Below are positions 40,586 through 60,178 of a DNA stretch of 64,000 bases, piece after piece. The translations under genes were made by a program, and so were the position numbers. This DNA comes from a virus. The DNA lies in the IMG/VR virus record IMGVR_UViG_3300042691_030776; one strand, written 5' to 3'. How positions within the stretch are numbered: position 1 is the stretch's first letter; each line of letters begins with the position of its first letter. Under the pieces are notes generated by a model. The model ran no database searches and was not told the DNA's origin. It worked only from the letters and a program-made list of their open reading frames with translations.

Positions 40586-40610
40586 AATGCCAAGATTTTT
40601 AAAAACATTT

Positions 40611-41657: not shown

Positions 41658-41674
41658 GATGGATATAAGATATC

Positions 41675-44033: not shown

Positions 44034-45400
44034 CAAAGAAAAGCAACCTTAGCAACTACAACTGGAAGGATCGGGTGCCCAGTTGGATTCCAATGGAACA
44101 ACTAACAGAAAAGCAACAACATCGCTTGATGCATTCTGACACATTTTGTATGTTACCCTGGATTCATTTACACGCCTGGCCCGATGGCCGTGCCTATCCT
44201 TGCTGTTTGGGCAAGGCAGAACATCCGGTGGGCAACTTCAAAGAAAAATCTATGAAAGAAATCTGGAACGACGACCCCATGCGACAGATGCGCCGTAACA
44301 TGCTGGAAGATCGACCCTGTGCTGAGTGCGGAGACTGCTATGAACAAGAATCAGCAGGGTTTGCATCCATGCGTAACAACTCCAACAAGAACTTTGCTCA
44401 ACACATTGACTTAATAGATCAAACGTTGCCCGATGGTACCTCGCCAGATATGAAGTTACACTATTGGGACGTGCGCTTTAGCAATATTTGTAATCTTAAA
44501 TGCCGTAGTTGCGGTAGCATTTTCTCAAGCCGTTGGTATGACGATGACATCAAACTCTGGGGCAAAGAGCTACGCCCACGTGTACAGTTTGCTGGACGCC
44601 ACGAAGAAGATGTCTGGGAACAAATGCAAGAACATATTCCGCATTTAGATCAGATCTATTTTGCAGGTGGTGAACCCTTGATCATGGAAGAGCACAATCG
44701 TATTCTCAAACTCCTGATTGAAAAAGGCAACACCAATGTACGATTGATCTACAACACTAATCTAACTGAACTACGTTTTAAGAAAGAAAGCGTGATAGAT
44801 CTATGGAAACATTTCCCCAATGTATGTGTGGCCGCTAGTTTAGATGACATGAGAGAACGTGCGGCAGTTATCCGGTCAGGCACAGACTGGGCGCAGGTGG
44901 AACAAAATATTCGAGATATCAAACGCGAGTGCCCGCACATTGATTTTATGATCTCGCCTACATTGAGTCTTATGAACATATGGAACTTTGTGAAATATCA
45001 TCGTTATATGATTGATCAAGGATTCATTGAACCCAAAGATTTTAATCTCAATATCTTGCAAGGACCAATGAACTATCGTATTGATCTACTACCACCAGAT
45101 ATCAAGCAAAGATTCAAGAAAGAGTTTGAGGAACATATTGAATGGTTGATTCCTAGAGATCCTATACAACGTGCAGTTGGCGGGTTCCAAGCCGCTATTG
45201 CTTTTATGATGTCCACCGACAACAGTCATCTGCTTCCAGAGTTTTGGAAAACAGTAATGGATCTTGATTGGGCTCGCAATGAATCATTGGAACAAGTAGT
45301 TCCTGAACTGGTAGAAATAGCCAGTTACAAACCAGATCACAGAAGATTGCCTATTGATCGCAATCATCGTGTGCTGAAACAACACAGTCAGTTTGAATAA
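44030..45400 (+). CDS. Radical SAM enzyme with N-terminal Twitch/SPASM module (3)
   Basis: CNLKCRSC, AGGEP; N-terminal CMLPW...YPCC...CGDC; start at the ATGA overlap. Confidence 0.9.
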   Translation: MTKKSNLSNYNWKDRVPSWIPMEQLTEKQQHRLMHSDTFCMLPWIHLHAWPDGRAYPCCLGKAEHPVGNFKEKSMKEIWNDDPMRQMRRNMLEDRPCAECGDCYEQESAGFASMRNNSNKNFAQHIDLIDQTLPDGTSPDMKLHYWDVRFSNICNLKCRSCGSIFSSRWYDDDIKLWGKELRPRVQFAGRHEEDVWEQMQEHIPHLDQIYFAGGEPLIMEEHNRILKLLIEKGNTNVRLIYNTNLTELRFKKESVIDLWKHFPNVCVAASLDDMRERAAVIRSGTDWAQVEQNIRDIKRECPHIDFMISPTLSLMNIWNFVKYHRYMIDQGFIEPKDFNLNILQGPMNYRIDLLPPDIKQRFKKEFEEHIEWLIPRDPIQRAVGGFQAAIAFMMSTDNSHLLPEFWKTVMDLDWARNESLEQVVPELVEIASYKPDHRRLPIDRNHRVLKQHSQFE

Positions 45401-45401
45401 T

Positions 45402-46610
45402 ATGAAAATACCACACGATAAGTTTTGTGTCCTACCCTGGGTCAGCATTGAAGCCAGCCCCATTGGCACTGTGCGTCCTTGTTGTTTGGCTACAGACGAA
45501 ATCCTAGACGATGCCGGCAACAAATTCAAACTCAATCAAGCATCATTCCAAGAAATACAAAATAGTCAGCATATGAGATCTCTTAGAGAGCAGTTTCTTG
45601 CGGGCGAGCAACCCCAAACTTGTCGCCGTTGTTGGAATGAAGAACGTGCTGGCCGTACCAGCAAGCGTATGCATACCTTGGATAGACTCAAGCACATGGG
45701 CATCAGTTCTGAATGGACAGCAGATGCCAAGCCCTTGATGTTCTTAGATCTCAAACTGGGTAACATCTGCAACCTTAAATGTCGTATCTGTGGATCGTGG
45801 TCGAGTTCGCAGTTTGCCACAGAAGAACTCAACTTCATCATTGACAAGGAAGAAAAGAAAACTAGCTTCCACTATCAAATGTTACGTGATGGCGCATGGC
45901 CCCGAGAGAGTGAGCAGTTTTGGGCACAGTTGGATTCAGCCATGGGCGAAGTTCGTTACATAGAGTTCACAGGTGGCGAACCTTTTATGATCCGTGAGCA
46001 TTTTGACCTGTTAAAAAAGTTAGTTGAGAAAAACTATGCACATCAAATAGAAATACATTATAACACCAACGGTACTCAGTATCCTAAAGAAGCTGAAGAG
46101 ATTTGGCAGTATTTTAAACATGTAGAGATTGCGTTTAGCATTGATGATGTTGGGTCACGTTTTGAATATCAACGCACCAATGCAGTATGGACAGAAGTTG
46201 TTGACAACATTGAAAAGTTCCAAGCCATGCGCGAAAGAAATCTCAACATGACTTTGCAAGTGTGTTGTACAATCAATGTATTTAATGTAATGTATCTTGA
46301 AGATGTAGCACAGTGGATTGACACACAGGATTTTGATTTTGTATATTGGAATATGTTGCATGATGCTTACTATTTTAGTATTGGCACTTTGCCTGCGGAA
46401 GCCAAACGTGTGGCCACTGAAAGATTGACAAAGGCCAATGTTCCTGCAAAGTTCCGAGCAGAGTTTGACCGTGTGATTGATTTCATGAACAACGGTGCCA
46501 GTCTTGATGGACAGCTATTACGCATAAAAGTCGAAGACTTAGATTTTAAACGTCAGCAACGGCTAGTAGACTACTTGCCAGAACTTGCTGGTGCCATTGG
46601 ATATCAATGA
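45402..46610 (+). CDS. Radical SAM enzyme with N-terminal Twitch/SPASM module (4)
   Basis: CNLKCRIC, TGGEP; N-terminal CVLPW...RPCC...CRRC. Confidence 0.9.
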   Translation: MKIPHDKFCVLPWVSIEASPIGTVRPCCLATDEILDDAGNKFKLNQASFQEIQNSQHMRSLREQFLAGEQPQTCRRCWNEERAGRTSKRMHTLDRLKHMGISSEWTADAKPLMFLDLKLGNICNLKCRICGSWSSSQFATEELNFIIDKEEKKTSFHYQMLRDGAWPRESEQFWAQLDSAMGEVRYIEFTGGEPFMIREHFDLLKKLVEKNYAHQIEIHYNTNGTQYPKEAEEIWQYFKHVEIAFSIDDVGSRFEYQRTNAVWTEVVDNIEKFQAMRERNLNMTLQVCCTINVFNVMYLEDVAQWIDTQDFDFVYWNMLHDAYYFSIGTLPAEAKRVATERLTKANVPAKFRAEFDRVIDFMNNGASLDGQLLRIKVEDLDFKRQQRLVDYLPELAGAIGYQ

Positions 46611-47512
46611 TTGACTTAGTATTATTACCTGAATATAAATCTGCGTTCATGACTCGCTACTTGTTGCCAGTTTTTTCGCAATGGTTTAGATTCCGGCAAT
46701 GGGATGCCAACACTACCTATGATAAAAGTTCATTGTTTGTAACACATCACAACTCTGACGTGGAGTTAGCCAACAGACTGTATGAACAAGGCTATTGTGT
46801 TGCAGTTGAAGAACTTTGGGAATACAGAGATCCACATCCACGATTTCATACCATTTCTTCTCTACGATGGTTTTGGATCAATGAAGCGCATTGGTACATG
46901 ATGTTGGGGTACGACCGCTATTATCCTACAAGAAACTACAGCAAACTTGCACTCATGCCCATGTGCAGACCACGTCCTCACAGAGACATGACACTACAAA
47001 AACTAGCACCTTGGCTTGATCAGTTTGTTTGGAGCTATCATAATCGTATGTTGCCCAACGATCTTTCATTGGAAAAACGAGAGCCTGGTGATTTTATCAA
47101 CTGGCAGCGATACTTTAATCCTGAATGGTATGACTCTACTTCTTTTTCTATAGCAGTAGAAACCATGATCACAGGACGTGGGTTCATAACAGAGAAAACT
47201 TGGAAGCCCATCGCTTACATGCATCCTTACATGGTGGTTGCACCCAACGGCACACTGAAACATTTACGCAGTTGGGGATTTGAAACCTACAGCAATATTT
47301 TTAACGAAAGCTATGATGACATAGATTTCAACGCAGGCAAACTAGATATCATTGCAGAGAATGTACGTTGTTATCAAGTGCAACCCTATGATGACGAAAC
47401 ACGAGATCGTGTGTCTTACAATAAAAATAGATTTTACAATCTCAATCTCTTAAAAACGGTGATCAGAGAAGACATACTAAATCCCTTGCAGGAGTTTATC
47501 AATGCGTCCTGA
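46607..47512 (+). CDS. GT10-like glycosyltransferase paralogue 4
   Basis: CRPRPHR; IAVET...FITEKTWKP...HPY...GFETY..FNESYD. Confidence 0.55.
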   Translation: MIDLVLLPEYKSAFMTRYLLPVFSQWFRFRQWDANTTYDKSSLFVTHHNSDVELANRLYEQGYCVAVEELWEYRDPHPRFHTISSLRWFWINEAHWYMMLGYDRYYPTRNYSKLALMPMCRPRPHRDMTLQKLAPWLDQFVWSYHNRMLPNDLSLEKREPGDFINWQRYFNPEWYDSTSFSIAVETMITGRGFITEKTWKPIAYMHPYMVVAPNGTLKHLRSWGFETYSNIFNESYDDIDFNAGKLDIIAENVRCYQVQPYDDETRDRVSYNKNRFYNLNLLKTVIREDILNPLQEFINAS

Positions 47513-48800
47513 CACACTTTGTATGGCCCCATGGACTCATACCTATCTGTCACCACAGACTGAGCGTCGTATGTGCTGTGCGTCAAGAGAACCTGCACAG
47601 AACTTTGAGCAGTACATCGACACTGCCGCAGGCACAGGTCGATATATTCCTATCACATTAGACGAACATTGGAACTCAGAACACATGAAGTCAGTACGTC
47701 GCAGGATGATGGCTGGAGAGACTCTGCCAGAATGTGATGTATGCAACAGCAAGCTCTTAAATACAGACGTCTATCGCAGTTATTTTTGGGGTTTGTTTAG
47801 CCACAAGTATGATGACGCCATGCAATCAACCGCTCCTGATGGGTCAACTACAATGAAGCCCGTGAGCTGGGATTACAGATTTAGTAATCTTTGTAACTTT
47901 AAATGTCGTATGTGTGGTGACATGCTGTCAAGTTCTTGGGAAACTGAGGAAAAGCGGCATGACATGGTTGACTGGTCTAATCCTAAAAACAACTGGATGC
48001 GCCCTGAAGTCAAACGTGAAATCACAAAGTTTCAAGACACACAGATAGAAGCAGAGTTTGCCCAGGCAGTAGAAGAACATCGCGTAGAAGAAATCTACTG
48101 GGTGGGCGGTGAGCCGTTGATGTATGAGCAACATTGGCGATATATGAAAAGAATTATTGAACTAGGCGATGGCCCTAAACTTTATGCAAGATACAATACC
48201 AACCTTAGCCGCGTGGATTATAATGGGATTAGTCTTTATCGTGATTTGTTATCAAATATACGTGACTTCCAAATCTGTGCAAGCATCGACGGAACAGGAC
48301 AAATCGGAGAATACATCAGAACCGGTCTGGCCTGGCCCGTATTTCTAGACAACTTCTGTCGTGGACTAGAAATAGCACGTCACCGCAGACAAATGCGCCT
48401 GGACTTTACTTTGACCTTACCAGGCTTGTTCGAAGTAGAAACCATGCAACGCACAGCTGATGAGCTAGGTGTGGATATCCTGGCCAAAGTAGTATTTGCG
48501 TTTACTCCTGACATTGTAATGAGTCCATTGGCTTTGCCTAGAGAAATACTAGACCGTAAAGTAGATGAACTGGTGCCTGCTACACGCGGCGCACTACAAG
48601 ATGTGCTACTACAGCTCAAGCAAAGGCCCACGTTTGAAGAACAATGGCCAGATCAGTACCACGCAGGTATTGCACGAGGCAAGGCTCGTGTGTTAAAATT
48701 AGAACAGATAAGAAACGATTCGTTTACAATGAACGACATATTGGAAAAAGATGCAGACATATATCGCTGGTGGCAAGACATTAGACCAAGTAACGATTGA
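47502..48800 (+). CDS. Radical SAM enzyme with N-terminal Twitch/SPASM module (5)
   Basis: CNFKCRMC, VGGEP; N-terminal CMAPW...RMCC...CDVC. Confidence 0.9.
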   Translation: MRPDTLCMAPWTHTYLSPQTERRMCCASREPAQNFEQYIDTAAGTGRYIPITLDEHWNSEHMKSVRRRMMAGETLPECDVCNSKLLNTDVYRSYFWGLFSHKYDDAMQSTAPDGSTTMKPVSWDYRFSNLCNFKCRMCGDMLSSSWETEEKRHDMVDWSNPKNNWMRPEVKREITKFQDTQIEAEFAQAVEEHRVEEIYWVGGEPLMYEQHWRYMKRIIELGDGPKLYARYNTNLSRVDYNGISLYRDLLSNIRDFQICASIDGTGQIGEYIRTGLAWPVFLDNFCRGLEIARHRRQMRLDFTLTLPGLFEVETMQRTADELGVDILAKVVFAFTPDIVMSPLALPREILDRKVDELVPATRGALQDVLLQLKQRPTFEEQWPDQYHAGIARGKARVLKLEQIRNDSFTMNDILEKDADIYRWWQDIRPSND

Positions 48801-49851
48801 GCTTAAGAACAGACAAACACAAGAAGTGTTTCCTGTTCGTATCAATGTGTTTGACAACTCCTTGAGTCACAAGTGGCTCCAGGCTCTCAATGAACTTTTA
48901 AAAAACAACTATCATTTAGAAAAGAACTACTGTTTCTTTGGCTTTGTCGAGCATAAAAGAAATGGCTGGCACATACTCAACGAAGTAAATCGTAGCATCG
49001 ATGCCATCAACCGTGCTGGGCTTGGATATCATATTGACGATTACTTTGACATGAGTAATACCGTCACAGACGAGCCTATCGATGGTCGCACAGCAGGACG
49101 AAACATACGACAGGAAAAGCTCAACTGGTTACATCGCTACTTTGAAGATCTGCAGGGCGTAAGTGGCGCACCAAAAGAATATTATCAACGGGCCGATGCC
49201 AAAACACGCTGGCATATTCGTCAGCTTAACTTGTTGTGTCATGAGTTTGAATCCTGGGCACTAAGTTATCGTAAACAGATAGAAGCACCCGAATGGCAAC
49301 GACCCAGTCAGCTGATGTGTTGGCTTAACGCACCGCGCTTTGTACTGGATGAAAAAGACTATGAACTATTCGGCATAGAAACGATCAACCGTCCTCTGGG
49401 CGGAGTATTTGTTGGAGTAAACAAAGCAGTGGGCAAGCATCATTGGGAAGTGTTTCAAGATGAAGGCCGGGACAGCCGCGTGGGCGAGCTAGTGTCAACT
49501 ACATTGCGCAGTCAAACAGAAGCTGCCGGTGACTTTGACATAGAGTGGGCCAACAATCCCGGCAACTACGAGTGGCAAAAAACACGCCTTAAAGAGTTTC
49601 GAGAATGGTTAACAGTCAATGGTTTTGATCCTGAAGATCCTGCACTGACCATTGGTCATCCGCAGATTGGACAGGTTGATCTCATTGATACATTCTGGAC
49701 AAATGATTACCAGGCCATCTGGCGCCGCCTAAATACACATCTCGATGTGTACAGCGTGAGTACCACAGATGCCCGAGCAGTGTATGATTATTGCTGGAGT
49801 GACTCTGACTATGCACAACAACAGATCAATATTATAGGACATACAAAATGA
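48751..49851 (+). CDS. Hypothetical protein (start uncertain)
   Basis: Long ORF within the operon; His/Glu helical motifs LNWLHRYFE and LNLLCHEFE. Confidence 0.75.
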   Translation: MQTYIAGGKTLDQVTIELKNRQTQEVFPVRINVFDNSLSHKWLQALNELLKNNYHLEKNYCFFGFVEHKRNGWHILNEVNRSIDAINRAGLGYHIDDYFDMSNTVTDEPIDGRTAGRNIRQEKLNWLHRYFEDLQGVSGAPKEYYQRADAKTRWHIRQLNLLCHEFESWALSYRKQIEAPEWQRPSQLMCWLNAPRFVLDEKDYELFGIETINRPLGGVFVGVNKAVGKHHWEVFQDEGRDSRVGELVSTTLRSQTEAAGDFDIEWANNPGNYEWQKTRLKEFREWLTVNGFDPEDPALTIGHPQIGQVDLIDTFWTNDYQAIWRRLNTHLDVYSVSTTDARAVYDYCWSDSDYAQQQINIIGHTK

Positions 49852-49949
49852 AATGGTTACGCAACTTGATCAACAGGATCCGACTCGAAATACGCTATCG
49901 TAAAAAACTCAAAGAACTTCGCAAACGAGATCCTTTTATTTACAAATGA
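49848..49949 (+). CDS. 33-aa basic micro-protein MKWLRNLINRIRLEIRYRKKLKELRKRDPFIYK
   Basis: Not in the ORF track; fills the gap exactly, with ATGA overlaps at both ends. Confidence 0.75.
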   Translation: MKWLRNLINRIRLEIRYRKKLKELRKRDPFIYK

Positions 49950-51433
49950 AACATATCTTAGGTATTAGTGCAGGGTTCCACGACGCCGCAGCCACTGTCA
50001 TCAACTCAGATGGTGAAATAGTTTTTGCCGGTCACTCTGAACGTTACAGTAAAAACAAAAACGATCCTGCAATATCTCCAGAGTTACTCAATGAACTCTG
50101 TGCTTGGGAATACGATACCATAGCGTTTTATGAACGTCCTTGGGTACACAACCTTCAACAGATTTATTCTGGCCAGCGACATTTTGGTCCCTGGACCACT
50201 CGCGGTGCGTTAAAGCAACACCTTGGCATCTGGTACCAAACACCTGCTCGACGGGAAGTCAGCTTTAATCATCACCTAAGCCACGCAGCCGCCGGCTTCC
50301 AAACAAGTCCCTATGACAGCGCGGCAGTTGTTGTGATTGATGCCATTGGCGAGCTAGACACTATAAGCATATTCCGAGCTTGGTACGACAACAAAGGTCG
50401 TGCGCAATACAAAAGAGTGTGGCGACAGCGTTACCCACATTCGATTGGCTTGTTTTACAGCGCAATGACTGATCGAGTTGGATTGAAGCCCATGGACGAA
50501 GAATACATAACCATGGGCATGGCCGCCTGGGGCAAGGATTCTTGGTATCCTACACTGTACAATCACGTAGTAAAAGATCACGAAAACGTCAGACTCAACG
50601 AGAACTTTCACATAGGTGTTGATGCTACTTTGCTAGAAGCTGCCACACCAGAAGATATTGCCTGCGCCACACAGTTGGTAGCAGAAGATCTCATAATGAA
50701 TGTGATGCAAAGGGCTTGGGAACTCACAGGAGAAACCAATCTTGTGTACATGGGCGGTGTGGCACTAAACTGTCTTGCCAACAGAAATCTTGGAGACCTT
50801 TATGAAAATATTTGGATCATGCCTAATCCTGGTGATGCTGGTAGCAGTCTTGGTGCTGCCGCTCTGGCTCATGGGCATAGAGTTAACTGGAGAAATCCTT
50901 ATCTCGGTCATGATATTCATGGCCCTTATCCCGTTGTGGAGCTTATGGATAGGCTACTTGCTGAACAAATTGTCGGAGTTGCCTCAGGAAGAGCCGAGTT
51001 CGGACCCCGCGCACTGGGAAACCGTAGCCTCCTGGCAGACCCTAGAGGTAGCACGATTAAGGAACGAGTCAATGAGATCAAACGTCGCCAACAGTTCCGA
51101 CCATTCGCTCCTGTGATCTTAGAAGAATGTGTCAACGACTATTTTGAAATGCCAGAAGGATACTCAACCAGTCCTTATATGCAAGTGGTAGCACGATGCA
51201 GGCATCCAGATCATTTTCCGGCTATTATACATGTAGATGGAACTAGTCGTGTGCAGACTGTGAGCCGAGATTGTGGTTCGGGTATCCGACAACTGCTGGA
51301 AGCATGGTATTTAGAAACAGGGTGTCCTATGTTGTTGAATACCAGCTTGAACATACGAGGAGAACCCATGGTCAATGACCGAGCCGACGCTGATCGTTTT
51401 GAAGCAAAATACGGTGTTAAAGTTTGTAGTTAG
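49946..51433 (+). CDS. O-carbamoyltransferase (NodU/CmcH/TobZ family)
   Basis: HDAAA, HHLSHAAAG, GGVALN, GDAG, EFGPRALGNRS, FRPFAP, HVDGTSRVQTV, LLNTSLN. Confidence 0.95.
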   Translation: MKHILGISAGFHDAAATVINSDGEIVFAGHSERYSKNKNDPAISPELLNELCAWEYDTIAFYERPWVHNLQQIYSGQRHFGPWTTRGALKQHLGIWYQTPARREVSFNHHLSHAAAGFQTSPYDSAAVVVIDAIGELDTISIFRAWYDNKGRAQYKRVWRQRYPHSIGLFYSAMTDRVGLKPMDEEYITMGMAAWGKDSWYPTLYNHVVKDHENVRLNENFHIGVDATLLEAATPEDIACATQLVAEDLIMNVMQRAWELTGETNLVYMGGVALNCLANRNLGDLYENIWIMPNPGDAGSSLGAAALAHGHRVNWRNPYLGHDIHGPYPVVELMDRLLAEQIVGVASGRAEFGPRALGNRSLLADPRGSTIKERVNEIKRRQQFRPFAPVILEECVNDYFEMPEGYSTSPYMQVVARCRHPDHFPAIIHVDGTSRVQTVSRDCGSGIRQLLEAWYLETGCPMLLNTSLNIRGEPMVNDRADADRFEAKYGVKVCS

Positions 51434-52184
51434 TTCTTAAGAACGGAAGCAAATGTTGTCGAGTCCAAGATAAATGCCCGTCAGGGCTAGGATGAAAATC
51501 ATCCATATCGAGTAAGTCATTTTTGATTGAAAAACGATATAGATTTTCCACACTGTATTCAATCATGCTATTGTATTTTGATTTTAAATCATCATTGAGA
51601 TGATCACGTATTTCAAAATCATATCCTCTGTTGGGGATCGATCGATCTAAATAATCTAAAAATAAAAATTTATATTGTTTTTGACGCAAGTAATGGTACA
51701 ACATTGACACGTAGAGATAGTTTTCTACAGTTCTTGATTCAATACTTTTTATCTGATCCATATCTTTAATACATTGAGTCTGAGCATTTCCTTTGCTTTC
51801 AGGATGATTTCCGCCACTGATGCCCGATACTACCGAGTCGGTATAACTAAAGGTCATCGGAAATCCATTCAATGAATTATCGGATATGATAGCATCATCT
51901 CTATTATGACAACTCCACATTACGATCACCAACGTATCTGCAGGATTGAGATTTAGAGTTTCTAAGGTCCATATCACACTGTGACTGATATGATAGTTCC
52001 CAGCACCGGGCAAGGAACAATCATAGACTTGGTCTATGCCAGCAAGATCTTTAATATAGTAAGGCCAAGTAACAGCACTGTTTTCACTGTTGTTGTAGGT
52101 AAAACTACACCCGCTGACTAAAAGATTCTTATATCCAAGATCAGTTTCTGTGGCAAACTGTTTTGGGATCAATCTAGTTTTCAT
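51417..52184 (-). CDS. SGNH/GDSL-like hydrolase or acyltransferase
   Basis: LLVSGCSFT (block I), GAGN (block II), DDFHPSPDGH (block V); start at the ATGA overlap 52184. Confidence 0.7.
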   Translation of the reverse strand: MKTRLIPKQFATETDLGYKNLLVSGCSFTYNNSENSAVTWPYYIKDLAGIDQVYDCSLPGAGNYHISHSVIWTLETLNLNPADTLVIVMWSCHNRDDAIISDNSLNGFPMTFSYTDSVVSGISGGNHPESKGNAQTQCIKDMDQIKSIESRTVENYLYVSMLYHYLRQKQYKFLFLDYLDRSIPNRGYDFEIRDHLNDDLKSKYNSMIEYSVENLYRFSIKNDLLDMDDFHPSPDGHLSWTRQHLLPFLRTNYKL

Positions 52185-53209
52185 AGGTAAGACTCTAGCC
52201 CACCTTTGCGTCGAATGTCTTGTGTACAGCAACTCACTCCACCGTCCCAGAAGTAGCTGTGTCGCAGTTCACTAATGATTGGCTCAATGCGATGTTTTTT
52301 GCAGAAATCAAAAACGTCTTTGTTGTAAGCTGAAAAGATAACATGACTTTCGTCTAGCACAAGACAGTTTACATCAAACACAGTTTCGCTGACAAAGCCA
52401 ACCCAACTGCTTAGATATTTGTCTACAAAGGCAGAAAACTCAGCAGTCGGTGTTTGTCCTTGTACATACCAAGCGCCATTGAAGTTTTCTTCTTTAAACT
52501 TGCCAACTTCCATGGCAGCCCAGATAGAACTATCCCAAATCTTGCACACATCCCAACTAGGAAAATCTCTAGCCAAGTCTAAGTTCACATCATGTTTACT
52601 GCTCAGTATTACTCCGGGCTTGAGTATGGCAAATACAGCATCACCGTGACCGTCTGTGATAGCTTCATGGATGCGATATTCGGATCCTAGTACGTTGTCT
52701 ACAATCCAACGGGTTTGTTCAGGCTTCAAAAAGTCTGAGTTGTCAAAGAATACATCACGACCCACACGCACAATACAACTAGCCGACGCACCGTTGAGTA
52801 TGCAGTTGGGATCCCAAGTTCCGTTATGTGGATCAATGACTTGATCTCCGTATGAAGAGCAAATATCATTGAGCTCGGCTACAGGTAACACACGTAGCAG
52901 TTTATTACCCAAAGTAATCTGCCAGTCTCTTGGTGTAAGAGGTGGGAGAGGCGCTCCTTCTCCAGATGTTTGCCAAGTTTGAAACTGATCTCGGTTGGGT
53001 AAGCTAGGTCTGCGTACAGTGGCACCATAGGTTTCTATAGTACGTTGTAGGTTATCAAGGTCTTCGGCTGTCTCTGCTAAGATCTGTTGTAGTTGATTTC
53101 TAACCTGAAGGTTGTCAATAAAATCAAAATAGTCTGGATCATAGGCTCTTCCTACTATGACTTCTTCTAAAGGTTGCCAACTGGTGTAGCTGTTTACGAT
53201 ATTGTTCAT
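52181..53209 (-). CDS. Amidinotransferase (StrB1/glycine amidinotransferase family)
   Basis: NSYTSWQPLEEVIVG, TPRD, GHGD (catalytic His), DGGVSCCTQD (catalytic Cys). Confidence 0.85.
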   Translation of the reverse strand: MNNIVNSYTSWQPLEEVIVGRAYDPDYFDFIDNLQVRNQLQQILAETAEDLDNLQRTIETYGATVRRPSLPNRDQFQTWQTSGEGAPLPPLTPRDWQITLGNKLLRVLPVAELNDICSSYGDQVIDPHNGTWDPNCILNGASASCIVRVGRDVFFDNSDFLKPEQTRWIVDNVLGSEYRIHEAITDGHGDAVFAILKPGVILSSKHDVNLDLARDFPSWDVCKIWDSSIWAAMEVGKFKEENFNGAWYVQGQTPTAEFSAFVDKYLSSWVGFVSETVFDVNCLVLDESHVIFSAYNKDVFDFCKKHRIEPIISELRHSYFWDGGVSCCTQDIRRKGGLESYL

Positions 53210-54393
53210 TGTTTTGTAAGTTCTCTGATCAAACTATTTAAACGATCCTGTTTGTTGCTTAAAAATAATCTTTGGTTGTGCAACAGATCATCACGGCAGT
53301 CAATATAAAGTTGATGCAAGTCAACTTGTGTTACTAACCGTTCTATTTCAGTACAGGCCATATCCCATCGACGAGTATTGTTGGTCTCTTGATCGTAGCT
53401 GTGGTCAATCACATGATCAAATATTCGATAACCCATTGACTTTAACTGTGCAATACTGCCTGCAGGCGCTAATAATAAAAACGGCTGACAGTTTTTAATA
53501 GGTTTAAATGTTTTTTCGGTCAGAAACGTTCCGCCGCTTTGATCAGCATCTAAATGTGTTTCGAGTATGATGTTGAGATAACTGTCATTGAAGTGTTGAT
53601 GTACCGTGGTGGCATACAGATTGTGCGTGGCTGAATCTAACTCATCAGCACGGAAAGGTCCGCTGTTTAGAAATTGATGTGTATCGGCACGGAGTCCATT
53701 AAATTGATCAACTTCTATTGGATTATCGATGTGTTCATCGTCGTTGATCAACTGTTGCGTATTGTAAGAAAAATATCCTGATTGATGCAAACCTTGACGC
53801 CAGAGTCGAGCCATGGTAGTAGCTCTCCACCATTTGTGTGTTCGAACTAACGCGGTGTACTTCTTTGTTCTTTTAATGCTGTGATCAAACGCTATGGGAG
53901 GTTCTTGGTTGCGTAGTTGATACAAGCATTCGTCATCAACAAAATGTGTGAAGTTCTTGATCTGTTGAGCCGCTGAGTTCGCACTGGTAAACTTGATACG
54001 ATCAGGATCAATGTCTTGATTAGAAAACTGTGACAGTATGTGTTGCTGTATACGAAAAGGGTTGTCACCTTCGCTGTAGAAGAACCATAGTGTAAGACTT
54101 TTAGTCCTGAGTTTTTCTCTAATAAACGTTGGTAATAGTTCAAACCAGTTGATATCAAAGTCAAAATAACTGAGACTGATAGGGTATAGTGTTTCTTTGG
54201 TGGCCTGTGTCCACTCTACCAACTGATATTCAACACCAGCACGATCAAGATAATCTAAAAAGTGTACAGGTTCACTGTAGGGCCATTGTCTGCTGAACTG
54301 CCACCATTCAGATGTGTAAGGTTCGGCCTCCCATCTAGCGAGATTAGGATAAGGTTTGTTGTTTACAATACGGTCAACGCAGAAAGTTACCAT
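53206..54393 (-). CDS. GT10-like glycosyltransferase paralogue 5
   Basis: NIILET...FLTEKTFKP...QPF...GYRIF..IDHSYD. Confidence 0.55.
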   Translation of the reverse strand: MVTFCVDRIVNNKPYPNLARWEAEPYTSEWWQFSRQWPYSEPVHFLDYLDRAGVEYQLVEWTQATKETLYPISLSYFDFDINWFELLPTFIREKLRTKSLTLWFFYSEGDNPFRIQQHILSQFSNQDIDPDRIKFTSANSAAQQIKNFTHFVDDECLYQLRNQEPPIAFDHSIKRTKKYTALVRTHKWWRATTMARLWRQGLHQSGYFSYNTQQLINDDEHIDNPIEVDQFNGLRADTHQFLNSGPFRADELDSATHNLYATTVHQHFNDSYLNIILETHLDADQSGGTFLTEKTFKPIKNCQPFLLLAPAGSIAQLKSMGYRIFDHVIDHSYDQETNNTRRWDMACTEIERLVTQVDLHQLYIDCRDDLLHNQRLFLSNKQDRLNSLIRELTKQ

Positions 54394-55448
54394 TGTTTGA
54401 TCATGTCAGTGAGTTCTTGCCATAACAAACTTTCAAACTCTCTAGAGTAAAACCAATGTAAGTTGTGCTCTACAACAGGTGCCAAGTGTTGTTGTAGTTG
54501 AGCTTTTTCTTTAGCACTCATTGACTCAAGATCTGCTAAGAGTTTGCCTATACGAGATATTCGTAGATCATCGTCTTTGTCGTCGTAATCTTCGTTCCAA
54601 AAATCACCAAAGGTCTTAAAACCATACCGCCGCAGATACTCTAGGCTACCTTGACAGGATACTAACACAAACGGTTGTTGCATAACGATAGGGCGGAATG
54701 TTTTTTCTGTCAGGTGTTGTCTGCGTCCAGAGTACACTGTTTCTGTAACCACATTGAGCAGGCTTCGATTAGCCAAGTCCCACATATCTATTCTATGACT
54801 GCTACCAGCATGATTAGCTCCATGATCAATGATCAATGGTAGGTTGACGTGCCCCAATGGGATATCGTATTCTTGACATAATTCGGCTACGGTTTTATTT
54901 TCATAAGGACAGCGTTCAGGAAAACTAATGAAGTTTGAGTCAATGAGTTCTCGATCAACTAACTCGTTTAACAATGCCACTCTATGATGTCTCCGACCAC
55001 CGATGATGTTGTTGGGGCAAAGGAATGTTCTTTCAATCTTTCTATCTAGAAATGGTTGTGATAGAAATGTATGATTGTAACCTCGATACCAGTCCAGTGC
55101 GGCCCATGCATGAAAGAAGTAATACCCAGAAGTCATGTTATAAGTATCGCATGTCCACTTTACATATTCGCTGTCATACTCTGAAGTTATTAACCAAAAT
55201 GGACCTTTATTCCACTTATTGCGATATATTGGAACAAACTGATCAAATAGTATTTTTACTCGATCCAGATGCAAAGGTTCTTGATCCCAAAAAAAGATTC
55301 GACCTTGGCTTTCATTTAACAACGGGTGATTTTTTATATCTTCAAAACTAGTAGACCCAAACGGATCAAACCAATGTAGCCCTATATCAGCTCGGTGTTG
55401 CAGAGCCGACACAAATGTGTTATAATATATTTCATCGATACGAATCAT
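54387..55448 (-). CDS. GT10-like glycosyltransferase paralogue 6
   Basis: NVVTET...HLTEKTFRP...QPF...GFKTF..WNEDYD. Confidence 0.55.
   Translation of the reverse strand: MIRIDEIYYNTFVSALQHRADIGLHWFDPFGSTSFEDIKNHPLLNESQGRIFFWDQEPLHLDRVKILFDQFVPIYRNKWNKGPFWLITSEYDSEYVKWTCDTYNMTSGYYFFHAWAALDWYRGYNHTFLSQPFLDRKIERTFLCPNNIIGGRRHHRVALLNELVDRELIDSNFISFPERCPYENKTVAELCQEYDIPLGHVNLPLIIDHGANHAGSSHRIDMWDLANRSLLNVVTETVYSGRRQHLTEKTFRPIVMQQPFVLVSCQGSLEYLRRYGFKTFGDFWNEDYDDKDDDLRISRIGKLLADLESMSAKEKAQLQQHLAPVVEHNLHWFYSREFESLLWQELTDMIKQW
55398..55426 (+). promoter_or_regulatory. Sigma70-type extended -10 promoter embedded antisense within the neighbouring CDS
   Basis: TTGCAG-N17-TATAAT with TGn, 20 nt before ATG 55447. 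Confidence 0.6.
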
Positions 55449-57063
55449 GTTTGACGTCTTTTATCTAACCACTCCAACTTATCGTTGGCCTCACGAGCGC
55501 CAAGCGAATAGTATTGAACACGCTTGTGAACTCAGCAGGACAAGATACTTATGGATAGTCGATGGGCTGAATGACTATTCTAACTTTGATTGGTTATGGG
55601 AACCCGTACCTTGGGAAGCACATCAAACTCATGTATGGCCTAGCCAACATCAGGAAAACGGTGGAACATATCTTGTACCCAAAACAGGCGTTAGCGAGAT
55701 AAACAGAAAGCATTGTCCTGTACCGCGTATTGGATCAGTGCCACGTATTGGAATAGATCACGGCAACGGGCTAGGCATAATGTGCAAGGAAAAATCTCGT
55801 TATATCTCTGACTACCTTGGCACCATGCGACGAGTTCTCAGCAAATGCAAACATGAATATGTCTGGATAGTCAGCAGTGTGTGTGACTACAGCACTTTTG
55901 ATTTTACATGGCACCCCAGCGAGTGGCAACAAGATATGCTACATGTATTTGCCAGTAACGAACAACAGTTCGGAGATACATTCTACGTACACGTTCCTAG
56001 CTTCCTTGCCAAAACAGAAAGTCTGGCCATACTAGAATGGTTTGAGACACTGAACTTTATCACTGATCGACCTGTGCCTAGGCTTCCAGTTCCTGTGTAT
56101 CGCCATGGTCACGACAGTCAAGTTCCTGCTGTATGGGAATATAACTTCCAGGACCCAGTGGTACTGTTTGTCAACAACGAATCTACTCCGGTAAACAATA
56201 TTCCTACTATGAGTCTTTGGAGAGAAAAAACCAAAACCATAGTACCATTGACACCGGGCGCCAGCTCTGTGCTAGTTCCCAGAGAAGCCAAGAACCATCT
56301 CAAGAAGCAGTTATACGATTATCCTCACGTTGATAAAACGCACAAAGATCTTGGAGAAGATCGTCCGTTGGATATAGTGTTTATTAGCAACGGAGAGCCC
56401 AATGCTGAACGCAACTGGACTACTCTATTAGAGGCCACTTACATGAAACCAAACAATGTGGTTCGCAGTGACGGAGTAAATGGGCGAGCGGCTGCCTATC
56501 ATGCCGCAGCCAATGCCAGCGGCACTGATTGGTTTTTTGCTGTGTTTGCCAAGCTCAGAGTCAATAGTGATTTTGATTGGTCCTGGCAGCCCGACCGCAT
56601 GCAACAGGCCAAACACTACATCTTTCATGCAAAAAATCCTGTAAATGGACTGATTTACGGACACCAGGCCATGATTGCTTACAATAAGAGATTAGTGTTA
56701 GCCAACCCAGGGCGCGGCCTGGACTTTACCTTAGATGATGAACATGAAGTAGTACCTATATTTTCTGGCACAGCAGAGTATGCTCATTCCAAATGGTCAG
56801 CATGGCGTACAGCATTCCGGGAGTGTTTGAAACTCAAAGGTCAGGAAGATGTAGAAAGTAAGTATCGCTTGAACAAGTGGTTGAACTTTGACAACACTGA
56901 TCAACACATAGTCAACGAAGATTGGAGCCGATGGGGTGCAGAGGATGCTGTGGCTTATTATGAAGAAGTAGACGGCAACTTTGATGCTCTCAAGAAGAGC
57001 TATGAATGGTCCTGGTTGGCCAGCTATGCCTTGCTCAAGCGCAATCTAACACCTGATCAATAA
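55447..57063 (+). CDS. Multi-repeat GT-A-like protein
   Basis: C-terminal domain homologous to 36369-37298 (LDIVFISNGEP, DGVNGRAAAYHAAA, AWRTAFRECLK); three W.V...FD[WF].W.P repeats. Confidence 0.6.
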   Translation: MFDVFYLTTPTYRWPHERQANSIEHACELSRTRYLWIVDGLNDYSNFDWLWEPVPWEAHQTHVWPSQHQENGGTYLVPKTGVSEINRKHCPVPRIGSVPRIGIDHGNGLGIMCKEKSRYISDYLGTMRRVLSKCKHEYVWIVSSVCDYSTFDFTWHPSEWQQDMLHVFASNEQQFGDTFYVHVPSFLAKTESLAILEWFETLNFITDRPVPRLPVPVYRHGHDSQVPAVWEYNFQDPVVLFVNNESTPVNNIPTMSLWREKTKTIVPLTPGASSVLVPREAKNHLKKQLYDYPHVDKTHKDLGEDRPLDIVFISNGEPNAERNWTTLLEATYMKPNNVVRSDGVNGRAAAYHAAANASGTDWFFAVFAKLRVNSDFDWSWQPDRMQQAKHYIFHAKNPVNGLIYGHQAMIAYNKRLVLANPGRGLDFTLDDEHEVVPIFSGTAEYAHSKWSAWRTAFRECLKLKGQEDVESKYRLNKWLNFDNTDQHIVNEDWSRWGAEDAVAYYEEVDGNFDALKKSYEWSWLASYALLKRNLTPDQ

Positions 57064-58129
57064 CATACTCAACTTCAAGATCTGTTAGTTCAGGGTACAA
57101 CGGCAGCGTCAACACACGGCGGCTCAGCGCCGAAGCACAACTCAAAATGTCTGGACCTTGATATTGTCGAAAGGTACCAATCTCGTGCAGTGGTTGTGTG
57201 TAATGTATTTTAGTTTCTATCTTCCGTACAGCAAGGTTTTTTTGTAGTATGTCTCTGTTGTTGACATCTATTACAAACTTGTGGTAAGCGTGATCGTGTC
57301 GGTTGTCTTGATCAATCAAACAACGGATATCCGATTGTTTTAATCGTTCAATCCAATAGCCAGCAATCTTCTGTCTACGTGTTTGCCATGCGTCAATGTA
57401 TCGAGTCTTGACCAACATGTGGGCACAATCAAGTTCACTCATACGACTGTTGGTTCCTGTTTCGTTGTGCGTGGTTTTACCATTGTCTCTCCAAGTTCGT
57501 ACAAAATCAAATATATCACGCTCGTTGGTCACAACAGCACCCCCGTTGCCATAGCAGGGTAGATTTTTCATAGGATCAAAACTGAGTGCGGCTGCCTTGC
57601 CAATACGCTGACAATCCGCGGCCAGCCAATGTTGAGCCGCATCTTCAATGACAATCTTATCGTTGAGAGTCCATTGTCTCCAGGTGCTGACGTCGCCCAT
57701 GTGTGTGATACCGGCACCGTACAGCCCAATCAGGACCACAGCTTGATAGCTGACATCGGGAATCTTTTTTATGTCGATCACACCATTGTGATCAGTGTCG
57801 ATAAAATGCACATTCCATCCTGCACGAATGAAAGCATTGGCAGTGGCCGCATAAGTCAAGCTAGGGATTAAAACTGTGGGAGGGCTGGGAGCTAGAGTAT
57901 CTGCGGCATAGTATTCAGCAATGGCTTCTAGTGCAGAAGTACCTGAGTGTACGCACACCGCATACTTTGCATGATTTTTTTTAGCTAGCCATGCTTCGAA
58001 CTCAGTGGTGTTATTACCGTTCATCAAGCTACCACTGCGAAGAACTTCGTCAGTGGCATCCAGTATCTCCTGCCGGAGATTGTTATACTGTTTTTTTAGA
58101 CCAGTAAACGGAATTGTTAAGCCACTCAT
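57035..58129 (-). CDS. DegT/DnrJ/EryC1/StrS PLP-dependent sugar aminotransferase
   Basis: SGTSAL, IEDAAQ, SFDPMKNL (PLP lysine), GNGGAVVT, GTNSRM, LTLPLYP. Confidence 0.92.
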   Translation of the reverse strand: MSGLTIPFTGLKKQYNNLRQEILDATDEVLRSGSLMNGNNTTEFEAWLAKKNHAKYAVCVHSGTSALEAIAEYYAADTLAPSPPTVLIPSLTYAATANAFIRAGWNVHFIDTDHNGVIDIKKIPDVSYQAVVLIGLYGAGITHMGDVSTWRQWTLNDKIVIEDAAQHWLAADCQRIGKAAALSFDPMKNLPCYGNGGAVVTNERDIFDFVRTWRDNGKTTHNETGTNSRMSELDCAHMLVKTRYIDAWQTRRQKIAGYWIERLKQSDIRCLIDQDNRHDHAYHKFVIDVNNRDILQKNLAVRKIETKIHYTQPLHEIGTFRQYQGPDILSCASALSRRVLTLPLYPELTDLEVEYVIDQVLDCA

Positions 58130-59057
58130 AATACCTTTGGAAGCCTTCTTCTACATCTACTTTGGGATCGTAGCCAAAATCTCTACGTGCGGCGTCAATG
58201 TTTAGAGCACCTCGACTAGGAAAATCAGCATCTTTGTCTCTGACTTCTATTGTGCCTTGCCCTACTATTTTTACAGCAAGGTTAGCCGCATCTAACAGCG
58301 TCCGACTATGACTCTTGGTGATGTTGTAGGTTTTGTTTGCAGTGTTATCGCTGAGAGCTGAGGACACTATACCATCGGCGGCGTCTTCTACATAGGTAAA
58401 ATCTAAAGTTTCGTTGGCACCGTTGACTTTGATTACACCGTTACGCATAGCAGTCAACAGAAACTTTGAAACAACACGATCTTCAACATCGTATTCTCCG
58501 TATACAGCGGAAGGACGAATAATGACATGATCAAAAAGATCACGCCTACTATAATCTCGGACAAGCCATTCTCCAGCAAGTTTCATGATACCGTATTGCC
58601 CTTGTGGACGGCACACAGCATCTTCTGTGACATCATCTGTGAAGTCTCCATAGACCATACTAGATGATATGTACACAAACTTATTTACACTGTGTTTCTT
58701 CGAAGCTTCTAGTAGATTGAGTAATCCTTCGCTCATGGCACGTGAGCCAATCATAGGATTTACATTCACTACTTTCTGACGGGGGAAGCTGGCCAGATGT
58801 ACTACAATGTCTGGACGATATGTTCTGAACATCCAGTCTATACCATCTTGATCAGCGATATCAATACCATGAACTCTGACATCGGGTATCTTTTTCCTAC
58901 GTTCCATCATAAGATAGTTTAGCTCGTCCTGTGGGACCAATCCATAGTTGGTTTTGGTATCCGTGACTGATACTTCATGTCCCTGGGTCATCAGACGTTG
59001 CACTACATTATGTCCGATCAATCCTAGACCGCCTGTTACTAAAATTTTTTGTTTCAT
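58083..59057 (-). CDS. NAD-dependent NDP-sugar epimerase/dehydratase (extended SDR)
   Basis: VTGGLGLIG, SSSMVYG, YGIMK (YxxxK), DFTYVED. Confidence 0.92.
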   Translation of the reverse strand: MKQKILVTGGLGLIGHNVVQRLMTQGHEVSVTDTKTNYGLVPQDELNYLMMERRKKIPDVRVHGIDIADQDGIDWMFRTYRPDIVVHLASFPRQKVVNVNPMIGSRAMSEGLLNLLEASKKHSVNKFVYISSSMVYGDFTDDVTEDAVCRPQGQYGIMKLAGEWLVRDYSRRDLFDHVIIRPSAVYGEYDVEDRVVSKFLLTAMRNGVIKVNGANETLDFTYVEDAADGIVSSALSDNTANKTYNITKSHSRTLLDAANLAVKIVGQGTIEVRDKDADFPSRGALNIDAARRDFGYDPKVDVEEGFQRYYEWLNNSVYWSKKTV

Positions 59058-60178
59058 ATCTGTTTCTCTTTAAGAGCATCCTCGATGTATTGTATAGCAA
59101 TATTTTCTTTGTTTTTATACAGTTCTTGTATCAATGTATAGTTTTGATCAAATCGAGACTTACATCGATGCCATTGGGCCAATGCTACTTCTCTATTTTC
59201 AAGTATTAGTCTATTAGAATTTATAGCAGTAACCATACGAGTATAGTGATCTTCAATGGTATCATAACCGTGATCAATCACGTCGTCAAATAGATCAAAT
59301 CCTAGTTTTCTCAAGTGATTTATTGACCCTGCCATACCAATGTAGATTGGAAAATTATAACCGTATACGCTATTGAGATATTTTTCTGTAATGATTCCAG
59401 ACCTATTGATAAAAACAGTTTCGGTCATGATGTCAACTATACTGTTACCAAATATATTGCGCAGATATCTATCAAAATTTGTGTGCGATCCTCTTGCAAT
59501 ACCTGCAGAATCTAGAAATTCATATTTGTTCTGGAAATACCCATCTACTGTTTTAACTTTATTAAATCCTTGTTGTAGCACAGGATAAAGAGAGGATATA
59601 GAATGAAGATATTCGTATTTGTTAATTTTAAAATATTTCAAAAATGATTTCCAGTCAGAATGCGGCATTATGGCTGCCGGATCTAATCTTATGTAACCAT
59701 GAGGTATATTTTCACCTAGCAACATCATTACACAGATGTTTCTATTCATTCGAATATTATTATTTAAACACACCCAGTGCCAGCCTTCGGAAAAAGTTTT
59801 AGCATCCACTGGATCAAGTTGATGATATTGGTTTATTGGATTTAGTAAAAAGTCTTCTCCCCATCGAATAATGTTTAAATTTTTGATTGCTGGAACTACT
59901 TCTTGCAAAAAAGGACAAACAGTCAACAGATAAAACATGTGATTGGGATTATTTTTTACAAGTTTTAACAAAACTTCAATCATTGTTTCAGATCGTCGAT
60001 CAACCGGAGTCAACAAAAATTCATCGTCGCCCCAATGGTCAACAGTCATTATGACAACATTTTTTTTACTTCGATCCCAGTCTTGATTTATAAAATTAAT
60101 AATACTTACATCATGATGAAATTTTGTTTTGAGATAGTCTTTGACACAACGAAAGGAGTTTCGAAAATCATAGTTCAT
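59054..60178 (-). CDS. GT10-like glycosyltransferase paralogue 7
   Basis: DIMTET...IITEKYLNS...FP...GFDLF..IDHGYD; AT-rich. Confidence 0.5.
   Translation of the reverse strand: MNYDFRNSFRCVKDYLKTKFHHDVSIINFINQDWDRSKKNVVIMTVDHWGDDEFLLTPVDRRSETMIEVLLKLVKNNPNHMFYLLTVCPFLQEVVPAIKNLNIIRWGEDFLLNPINQYHQLDPVDAKTFSEGWHWVCLNNNIRMNRNICVMMLLGENIPHGYIRLDPAAIMPHSDWKSFLKYFKINKYEYLHSISSLYPVLQQGFNKVKTVDGYFQNKYEFLDSAGIARGSHTNFDRYLRNIFGNSIVDIMTETVFINRSGIITEKYLNSVYGYNFPIYIGMAGSINHLRKLGFDLFDDVIDHGYDTIEDHYTRMVTAINSNRLILENREVALAQWHRCKSRFDQNYTLIQELYKNKENIAIQYIEDALKEKQI

Follow-up and report, generated by a model that had tools for sequence, protein, structure and literature searches.

A jumbo phage gene island that may build and tailor a guanidino- and carbamoyl-decorated glycan

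The stretch of DNA analysed here, 64,000 nucleotides of the virus record IMGVR_UViG_3300042691_030776 (hereafter the window), contains an island of about 26 kb (34120-60178) in which seven paralogous GT-B-like glycosyltransferases and six radical S-adenosylmethionine (SAM) enzymes are found together with tailoring enzymes, among them an amidinotransferase, an O-carbamoyltransferase, a DegT aminotransferase and an extended short-chain dehydrogenase/reductase (SDR). We propose, with a confidence that we would call evenly balanced, that this is a cytoplasmic glycan-building and tailoring island whose product is a guanidino- and carbamoyl-decorated glycan on a virion protein. Such a product is probably a positively charged, heavily decorated sugar chain; it probably decorates a component of the phage, and possibly the virion. 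The more specific idea that the amidinotransferase, expressed from a promoter of structural-gene type, turns the amino sugars of a virion glycan into guanidino sugars is put forward only tentatively. The enzyme block examined here forms the right end of the island, and an initial annotation of positions 49946-59057 had described it as an enzyme set for a guanidino- and carbamoyl-substituted amino sugar. That proposal is partly supported, in that its general idea of a sugar bearing amino, guanidino and carbamoyl groups was right and its specific analogies were wrong. The eight open reading frames (ORFs) of this interval all exist as intact genes and lie where they had been placed. The block and its immediate flanks are as follows.

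49848..49949, + strand: gene for a basic peptide of 33 amino acids (ORF; no Pfam or PHROG match)
49946..51433, + strand: O-carbamoyltransferase of the CmcH/NodU/TobZ family, 495 amino acids (both Pfam domains, PDB matches)
51417..52184, - strand: accessory SGNH/DUF6071-like protein, 255 amino acids from its ATG (structural likeness only)
52181..53209, - strand: amidinotransferase of the AGAT/StrB1/SxtG/HsvA branch of the GME superfamily, 342 amino acids (sequence and fold)
53235..53241, - strand: TTTAAATA promoter-like element (conserved position, synonymous constraint)
53206..54393, - strand: predicted GT-B-like glycosyltransferase paralog, 395 amino acids (paralogy to the modelled 353-amino-acid protein)
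54387..55448, - strand: predicted GT-B-like glycosyltransferase paralog, 353 amino acids, the one modelled (predicted structure)
55447..57063, + strand: FDWxWxP-type repeat protein of 538 amino acids with a conserved C-terminal domain
57035..58129, - strand: DegT/DnrJ/EryC1 sugar aminotransferase, dependent on pyridoxal phosphate (PLP), 364 amino acids (Pfam)
58083..59057, - strand: extended SDR of the nucleoside diphosphate (NDP)-sugar epimerase/oxidoreductase type, 324 amino acids (Pfam)
59054..60178, - strand: seventh predicted GT-B-like paralog, 374 amino acids (paralogy)

Sequence comparison and a predicted structure together confirm that the amidinotransferase is a genuine member of the AGAT/StrB1 family with its Cys and His intact, as had been claimed under the name of a StrB1-like enzyme. 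The protein has no Pfam match, and the same is true of 14 to 15 of its relatives, which are 30-42% identical to it. A phmmer search of PDB sequences returned AGAT (5e-16), StrB1 (2.6e-12), SxtG (1.9e-11) and HsvA (6.9e-11), and a profile built from 13 sequences reached an E value of 4.8e-22. When an AlphaFold model (pLDDT 77, pTM 0.83) was used for Foldseek searches, these four enzymes were matched at E values of 2e-18 to 1e-17, whereas DDAH, arginine deiminase and agmatine deiminase were matched at about 1e-8 or worse. The predicted pentein/GME fold is therefore nearer to the amidinotransferases than to the hydrolases. Alignment to AGAT pairs C327 with C407, H188 with H303, D190 with D305 and D95 with D170; D95 stands within a P-R-D motif and D190 within H-G-D. 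An alignment of 117 sequences (the window's protein plus 116 representatives) shows that Cys327 is kept in 116, His188 in 115, Asp190 in all 117 and Asp95 in 113. In AGAT the two Asp residues are those that hold the guanidinium group of the substrate. The enzyme is predicted to be of the L-arginine type.

The clade of this enzyme is virus-borne. Our scan of bacterial and archaeal genomes found no close cellular copy, and its sole match was a contig from a metagenome-assembled genome (MAG) that carries the whole phage island. That contig (NZ_JBBAKG010000003.1, 148 kb, from a MAG titled Haliscomenobacter sp.) has the island in the same order and includes an SGNH-like gene at 45% identity; it is either a phage contig that was binned with the MAG or a weak hint as to the host. 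A scan of IMG/VR found 143 contigs with the amidinotransferase, 80 of which were kept for locus counts; their enzymes are 77-91% identical and the contigs reach 364 kb. The gene order is the same in 12 of the 12 loci printed, and the recurrence of both order and families indicates that the grouping of these genes is not due to chance. Occurrence and median identity among the 80 loci are given here.

Amidinotransferase: 80 of 80 loci, 81%
ThyX: 59 of 80 loci, 74%
Radical SAM protein rSAM-432: 65 of 80 loci, 73%
Radical SAM protein rSAM-405: 66 of 80 loci, 67%
SDR: 60 of 80 loci, 66%
Carbamoyltransferase: 72 of 80 loci, 64%
DegT: 60 of 80 loci, 60%
366-amino-acid protein: 68 of 80 loci, 60%
Repeat protein: 69 of 80 loci, 52%
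Glycosyltransferase-like, 53206-54393: 75 of 80 loci, 42%
Glycosyltransferase-like, 54387-55448: 79 of 80 loci, 41%
SGNH-like: 2 of 80 loci

The same enzyme is common in larger protein sets. In a collection of 5.8 billion proteins, 1716 clusters at 90% identity match it at E<=1e-5, and the best 120 of these 1716 are 81-100% identical to it. A library clustered at 50% identity holds 677 matching clusters (E<=0.001); there the clade appears as one full-length representative (81%), and the next full-length relatives are at most 42% identical. A tblastn search (E<=1e-3) of 50,697 records of cultured phages matched only three, namely the Synechococcus phage S-SCSM2R and two marine single-amplified-genome (SAG) virus contigs; phage RsoM2USA has one related radical SAM protein and a carbamoyltransferase without an amidinotransferase, and megablast found nothing similar to the region in cultured phages. 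The description of amidinotransferases as unusual in phages thus holds for cultured phages and fails for metagenomes, in which the clade is abundant.

The evidence for a tie between the amidinotransferase and the SDR-DegT pair is mixed. Linkage was counted in the 58 loci whose sequence reaches from ThyX to the repeat protein. All of them have the amidinotransferase, and orthologues of both SDR and DegT are present in 46. In two loci (L051:3632-4651 and L071:3464-4483) a second amidinotransferase paralog, 28-29% identical and with the usual G-G-W-H-C motif kept, occupies the place between SDR and DegT, its gene ends overlapping theirs. The gene groupings reported for S-SCSM2R and for the Campylobacter phages CP220 and CPt10, described at the end, likewise speak for a link. 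The remaining 12 loci are considered below, where the interpretation is weighed.

The identities of DegT and of the extended SDR hold at the level of Pfam. DegT matches PF01041 at E 2.4e-60 (205 bits, cut-off 19.8) and reaches no NCBIfam equivalog cut-off; its best PDB match is 7b0d (1.8e-44), a chain labelled glutamine-scyllo-inositol transaminase, it is nearest to C3-type aminotransferases such as QdtB, the DesV-type 2oga and WbpE, and its PLP Lys, in S-F-D-P-M-K-N, aligns with the Lys of 7b0d. The SDR matches Epimerase at E 2.7e-42. Where the aligned dehydratase 2hun has T-D-E it has S-S-M, with YxxxK kept, which indicates an extended SDR of epimerase/oxidoreductase type and not an RmlB-like 4,6-dehydratase. 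It matches the UDP-GlcA 4-epimerase 6zl6 and UXS about as well as it does dehydratases, and scores 124 bits against TIGR01181 (cut-off 365). It follows that the textbook SDR plus DegT route to an NDP-4-amino-6-deoxy sugar is not encoded: of the earlier suggestion that this pair makes an NDP-amino-sugar, the logic of sugar amination survives and the 4,6-dehydratase route does not.

Both Pfam domains of the O-carbamoyltransferase are above cut-off, so that its assignment to the TobZ/NodU type stands: Carbam_trans_N is matched at E 1e-34 and Carbam_trans_C at E 2e-51, with 120.9 bits for PF02543 (cut-off 24) and 174.4 bits for PF16861 (cut-off 27). It belongs to phrog_1601 (E 3.5e-93), its best PDB sequence matches are NovN (2.8e-52), GdmN (1.2e-50) and TobZ (6e-34), and a score of 145 bits against the NodU equivalog model, whose cut-off is 1000, indicates that it is not NodU itself. 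The small peptide that had been noted beside it is the basic 33-residue product of 49848-49949, an ORF placed two codons outside the start given for the block, which we found in 68 of 81 sources and whose C-terminal 20 residues (LEIRYRKKLKELRKRDPFIYK type) are almost invariant. Its gene overlaps by 4 nt with the stop of the 366-amino-acid gene on one side and with the carbamoyltransferase start on the other; the overlap with the carbamoyltransferase occurs in 46 of 63 loci and that with the 366-amino-acid gene in 44 of 63, so that gene coupling favours neither of these two proteins as a possible partner of the peptide. The peptide has no Pfam or PHROG match and the 366-amino-acid protein no Pfam, PHROG or PDB sequence match. 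Small proteins of the SxtK/DUF5989 type beside bacterial carbamoyltransferases have a similar P-F-I-Y end; a family search gave no support for this likeness, which is no more than a lead. The supposed GDSL hydrolase (51417-52184), whose start overlaps the amidinotransferase stop (ATGA), shows a structural likeness and no sequence match: TM scores of 0.75-0.81 to viral Atlas clusters auto-named SGNH/DUF6071 are its sole support, and searches of Pfam, PDB and PHROG found no match (top Pfam entry DUF6071, E 0.11). Its G-C-S and D-x-x-H motifs may be SGNH blocks. The gene is accessory, being present in 2 of the 80 IMG/VR loci and in the MAG contig (3 of 81 related loci).

The sugar context of these enzymes comes from the seven paralogs that surround them. 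All-against-all blastp groups proteins starting at 37292, 40632, 41675, 46607, 53206, 54387 and 59054 into one unrecognised family without a Pfam, PHROG or PDB sequence match. A model of the 353-amino-acid member (pLDDT 78) gave Foldseek matches that, as far as listed, were all GT-B enzymes (best E 3.8e-4), and a wide VIA-align search returned T4 BGT (Z 11.8), T4 AGT (Z 10.8) and alpha-1,3-fucosyltransferases (Z 8.7-9.4); 16 chains reached Z>=8, and the listed rows at that level were glycosyltransferases. We therefore predict from the model that the seven paralogs have a GT-B fold and that they are transferases. An E-T ... T-E-K stretch in the 'TEK' paralogs resembles the fucosyltransferase motif. 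The family also gave one profile match to a Fic protein (E 0.004), which we took to be fortuitous in view of the GT-B result of the fold search. The seventh paralog (59054-60178) is specific to the window's phage, with one match in 80 loci at 25% identity. The 538-amino-acid protein with its FDWxWxP-type repeats is 48% identical to the C-terminus of a homologue of 1395 amino acids. Among relatives this protein ranges from 538 to 1395 amino acids (e.g. L032:3547-7734), since the number of repeats of about 60 residues (FDWSWxPD...YIYxFGNQ type) before the conserved C-terminal domain varies. It has no Pfam, PHROG or PDB match, and the Atlas gave virus-only clusters, the nearest named one being Glycos_transf_2 at a weak score of 0.85; a GT-A-like fold is only a lead. 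The gene is divergent from that of the modelled glycosyltransferase, and their start codons overlap by 2 nt (CATG, 55446-55449), so that the promoter of each must lie within the other.

Based upon these families we suggest a pathway in which the enzyme families are shown and the order and substrates are inferred. Host nucleotide sugars would be the starting material. NTP_transferase and CTP_transf_3 were each over cut-off in none of five near-complete related IMG/VR contigs (316-364 kb, CheckV completeness 89-100%), the set used for all family-absence tests here, in which the positive control, DegT, was found in all five; activated sugars must accordingly come from the host. These would be remodelled by the epimerase-type SDR, either the SDR or a BtrN-like radical SAM dehydrogenase would create a keto group, and DegT would transaminate this group to give an amino sugar. 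The amidinotransferase would take the amidino group of L-arginine onto Cys327, assisted by His188 and with Asp95 and Asp190 holding the guanidinium, and would pass it to the sugar amine to yield a guanidino sugar. The TobZ/NodU-type enzyme would form carbamoyl-AMP from carbamoyl phosphate and ATP and O-carbamoylate a sugar hydroxyl, and the seven soluble GT-B-like paralogs would assemble the sugar chain straight onto an acceptor in the cytoplasm. A virion protein is the most probable acceptor, for instance one of the fibres whose genes lie just upstream. Cytoplasmic assembly is suggested by the fact that no island ORF has a 19-residue window of mean Kyte-Doolittle hydropathy above 1.63 (a crude test for membrane-spanning proteins), which points to the lack of a flippase, polymerase or undecaprenyl-phosphate transferase; likewise, neither family scans nor hydropathy showed any island ORF to be an initiating phosphoglycosyl transferase, a flippase, a polymerase or an ABC exporter. 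The conversion of amines to guanidines and the O-carbamoylation of a sugar, as originally envisaged, are reasonable in the light of the seven GT-B-like paralogs, of the amidinotransferase paralog between SDR and DegT, and of the gene set reported for S-SCSM2R.

A link to structural genes is suggested by the place of the island behind the baseplate and giant fibre genes, by the reported detection of the S-SCSM2R homologue (30% identity) in purified virions (PMC12801897), and by a short sequence element. The TTTAAATA element falls within the last part of the coding sequence of the upstream glycosyltransferase, some 24 nt ahead of the amidinotransferase ATG. In 68 of 80 loci TAAATA occurs between positions -50 and -5 relative to this start (at -24 in 47 of them), compared with 0-9 loci for twelve other island gene families in the same test and 0.6% of random 45-nt windows. 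TAAATA spans Leu-Asn codons of the poorly conserved upstream gene. Within the element, 48 of 56 unique genes have TTA for Leu, which accounts for 23% of the Leu codons over the whole gene, and 50 of 56 have AAT for Asn (53% over the whole gene); at the following Leu position, a few codons further on, no such constraint is seen (TTA 15, CTA 14, TTG 13, CTT 3). This synonymous bias suggests that selection acts on the nucleotide sequence itself. Of the 13 occurrences of WTAAATA in the window, five lie within 60 nt upstream of a start on the same strand, positions that make up about 2% of the sequence; two of the five precede the gene at 31629, and the others the gp25-like gene, the baseplate gene after it and the amidinotransferase. 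WTAAATA is enriched upstream of genes or in intergenic gaps, with such occurrences at 12380, 12791, 31575, 31600, 53241 (- strand), 60289 (- strand) and 62317 (- strand). WTAAATA resembles the T4 late promoter TATAAATA, whose exact consensus is absent from the window, and is probably the form that the core of the late promoter takes in this phage. Scans of the window for TGTTATAAT and for sigma-70-type promoters showed no enrichment over shuffles, and a TATAAT upstream of the 538-amino-acid gene was rejected as a conserved promoter, being kept in only 3 of 67 loci.

Several points weigh against a guanidino glycan on the virion. No product, acceptor or activity is established for any member of the island, and we know of no GME-family amidinotransferase that acts on a nucleotide sugar or a glycan. 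In the enzyme itself, Asp254 of AGAT falls on Ser142, a variable column (N 22, D 17, S 16 of 117) at the alignment edge, where the HMMER alignment was extended by one residue, and this clade has Ser in front of the catalytic Cys, a position that is His in 108 of 117 sequences. The modelled glycosyltransferase paralog finds its closest structural matches in BGT and AGT of T4, which modify DNA. WTAAATA also stands about 200 nt upstream of the ThyX-containing operon in 28 of 38 loci, so that late timing is not proven. Finally, the amidinotransferase is in some respects set apart from its neighbours. It is the best-conserved gene of the island (81%, against about 41% for the neighbouring glycosyltransferases and 60-66% for DegT and SDR) and has a promoter-like element of its own, and in 12 of the 58 spanning loci it is accompanied by the SDR with a different DegT (28-39% identity; seven loci), by the SDR only (two) or by neither (three). 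Since it persists without DegT or SDR, it may use an acceptor from outside the cassette. These last features also speak for a rather unlikely alternative, in which the amidinotransferase acts apart from the sugar cassette on a common small amine, either a host polyamine or an amino acid, and makes a guanidino polycation or metabolite that is needed late, for example for neutralising DNA charge while a genome of 300 kb is packaged. HsvA acts on a polyamine and AGAT, AmtA and CyrA on amino acids, and HsvA matches the phage enzyme as well as StrB1 does. The identity of 81-100% within the best 120 metagenomic clusters fits this alternative, as does the S-SCSM2R homologue that is reported from purified virions. 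Against it, the gene is always found inside the glycan island, where two glycosyltransferase genes precede it on its own strand and the gene ends overlap, a paralog was inserted exactly between SDR and DegT in two loci, and family scans saw no polyamine-synthesis gene in the window.

Three further explanations concern the product of the island as a whole. We see a small chance that it alters host envelope glycans (lipopolysaccharide (LPS), capsule or S-layer glycan) during infection and thereby blocks superinfection or changes a receptor. Modification of the host envelope has previously been proposed for cyanophage LPS genes, and the cyanophage relatives have their amidinotransferase beside KdsA, KdsB and glycosyltransferases; the S-SCSM2R report discusses kdsA and kdsB as modifiers of host phenotype (PMC12801897). 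The island ORFs, however, offer none of the membrane, initiation, flipping, polymerisation or export functions listed above, and the island lies directly behind the fibre genes, with which it has the promoter-like motif in common. We attach somewhat less weight still to hypermodification of the phage DNA, in which a BGT/AGT-like sugar on a modified base would be aminated, amidinated and carbamoylated as a defence against nucleases. The first structural ranks of T4 BGT and AGT, the presence of ThyX next to the island and the T4-like replication genes are in its favour, but fucosyltransferases and protein O-glycosyltransferases come within 2-3 Z units of BGT and AGT, BGT is simply a minimal GT-B enzyme of the same size as the model, and seven transferase paralogs with six radical SAM enzymes far exceed any known DNA glycosylation system. 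Moreover, ThyA-type hydroxymethylase, TGT/DpdA, TET/JBP and C5 DNA methylase were each found in none of the five relatives, which indicates that the known routes to glycosylatable DNA bases are absent. The least probable of these explanations is a free secondary metabolite of aminocyclitol, aminoglycoside-like or saxitoxin-like kind. StrB1 and SxtG are among the four best matches of the amidinotransferase, the best PDB match of DegT carries a scyllo-inositol transaminase label, the carbamoyltransferase matches TobZ, and BtrN-type radical SAM dehydrogenases act on aminocyclitols. The streptidine/bluensidine chemistry that had been invoked is nevertheless not borne out, since a DHQS-type sugar-phosphate cyclase (PF01761) and an inositol-1-phosphate synthase (PF07994) were over cut-off in none of the five relatives; a cyclitol made by the phage is not supported, although supply of a cyclitol by the host may occur. 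The echo of sxtI/K/L/G proved superficial: SxtG is no closer than AGAT or StrB1, the SGNH gene is missing from all except three of the 81 related loci, the peptide is without a match, and a scan of 45 proteins encoded by the window gave no polyketide synthase and neither an SxtA-like nor any other Sxt-type domain; an exporter was not found either.

The remainder of the island and its surroundings are consistent with a large T4-like phage. By its sequence, the source of the window is an uncultured jumbo myovirus of T4 type that has PA5oct and RsoM2USA among its relatives: its gp46-like SbcC subunit is 50.8% identical to that of Pseudomonas phage PA5oct, its replication genes are T4-like, and the window additionally encodes a gp25 baseplate wedge protein, a SegE-like endonuclease and a protein of 4860 amino acids with FG-GAP and CBM5/12 matches. 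Baseplate and giant fibre genes precede the island, and ThyX adjoins it. Its left part contains the following features.

34120..49851, + strand: left two thirds of the island (Pfam and NCBIfam NF033640 matches, all-against-all blastp)
Start 36369, + strand: relative of the 538-amino-acid repeat protein
Starts 37292, 40632, 41675 and 46607, + strand: four predicted GT-B-like paralogs of the left part (all-against-all blastp)
Starts 38274, 42681, 44015, 45393 and 47502, + strand: five N-twitch radical SAM genes (NF033640; Pfam/NCBIfam)
Start 39695, + strand: SPASM radical SAM gene (Pfam/NCBIfam)
48751-49851, + strand: conserved protein of 366 amino acids, no family match

A bidirectional G+C-rich hairpin terminator (34069-34088) is directly followed by TTTACT-17-TATAAT with an upstream TG (34086-34114), and this combination of terminator and promoter-like site marks the left border of the island. 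A single ORF (16224-30806, + strand) that follows the baseplate genes directly encodes the 4860-amino-acid protein, presumably an adhesin or giant fibre, which is a candidate acceptor of the island glycan. At 352-786 (- strand) the gene for the SegE-like GIY-YIG homing endonuclease adjoins the gp46/gp47-like recombination nuclease genes.

If a guanidino- and carbamoyl-decorated virion glycan is indeed what the island makes, the particle would wear an arginine-mimicking, permanently cationic sugar coat. We know of no glycoconjugate that carries a guanidino sugar of such a kind, and our full-text literature search found no publication on the island or on a phage guanidino-glycan. Phage glycan islands and virion glycosylation are already known, so that the novelty would lie in the chemistry of the guanidino- and carbamoyl-bearing glycan and, for the amidinotransferase family, in a glycan or nucleotide-sugar acceptor. 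The unusually strong constraint on the enzyme and its abundance in metagenomes imply that it is of importance to freshwater jumbo phages of a widespread group. Because it is small, soluble and easily assayed with arginine and candidate amines, the question is directly testable, and the conserved TTAAATA element provides a handle on when the gene is expressed.

Comparable modules have been described in other phages. In the T4-like Campylobacter phages CP220 and CPt10, the accessible part of the description reports a swappable module of five radical SAM genes and a putative glycine amidinotransferase (Timms et al., 2010, PMC2853527). These phages thus resemble the island in having a radical SAM cluster with an amidinotransferase, of equally unassigned function; in contrast to the island, no carbamoyltransferase, DegT/SDR pair or glycosyltransferase array is mentioned in that part of the paper (PMC2853527). 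The CP220-type protein was unmatched by tblastn (E<=1e-3) with the window's enzyme as query and so is a distant relative at best. In S-SCSM2R, ORF266 is 30% identical over 97% of the amidinotransferase query and sits beside KdsA, KdsB and a glycosyltransferase. The 2025 report on this Synechococcus phage also places a DegT-family protein (ORF305), a radical SAM protein (ORF306) and an 'inosamine amidinotransferase' (ORF309) together, and lists ORF266, as a 'glycine amidinotransferase', in the proteome of CsCl-purified virions (PMC12801897). There its authors consider that ORF266 was carried along or is highly expressed, and they read the genes as 'antibiotic synthesis' without any test (PMC12801897). 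S-SCSM2R differs from the window's phage in being a cyanophage, in the make-up of its island and in having no carbamoyltransferase beside ORF266. PMC11360552 deals with a viral GAMT that is not relevant to the island.

The individual enzymes can be compared with characterised proteins. The phage carbamoyltransferase has the same two-domain architecture as TobZ, NovN and GdmN, Kae1-like at the N-terminus and YrdC-like at the C-terminus, but is shorter (495 against 576-702 amino acids) and is preceded by the gene for a nearly invariant 33-residue peptide of no known family. The modelled glycosyltransferase paralog shares the minimal GT-B fold of two Rossmann domains with T4 BGT, T4 AGT and the GT10-type alpha-1,3-fucosyltransferases (Z 11.8, 10.8 and 9.4), from which it differs in sequence (7-14% identity) and in being one of seven paralogs in a single phage. 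The amidinotransferase has its fold, its Cys, its His and its two Asp residues in common with StrB1 (L-arginine:inosamine-phosphate amidinotransferase, 1bwd), human AGAT (1jdw), SxtG (6u1r) and HsvA (5wpi); at 18-22% identity it is about equally distant from all four. A Ser in a variable column at the alignment edge falls on Asp254 of AGAT, and a further Ser stands before the catalytic Cys in its clade.

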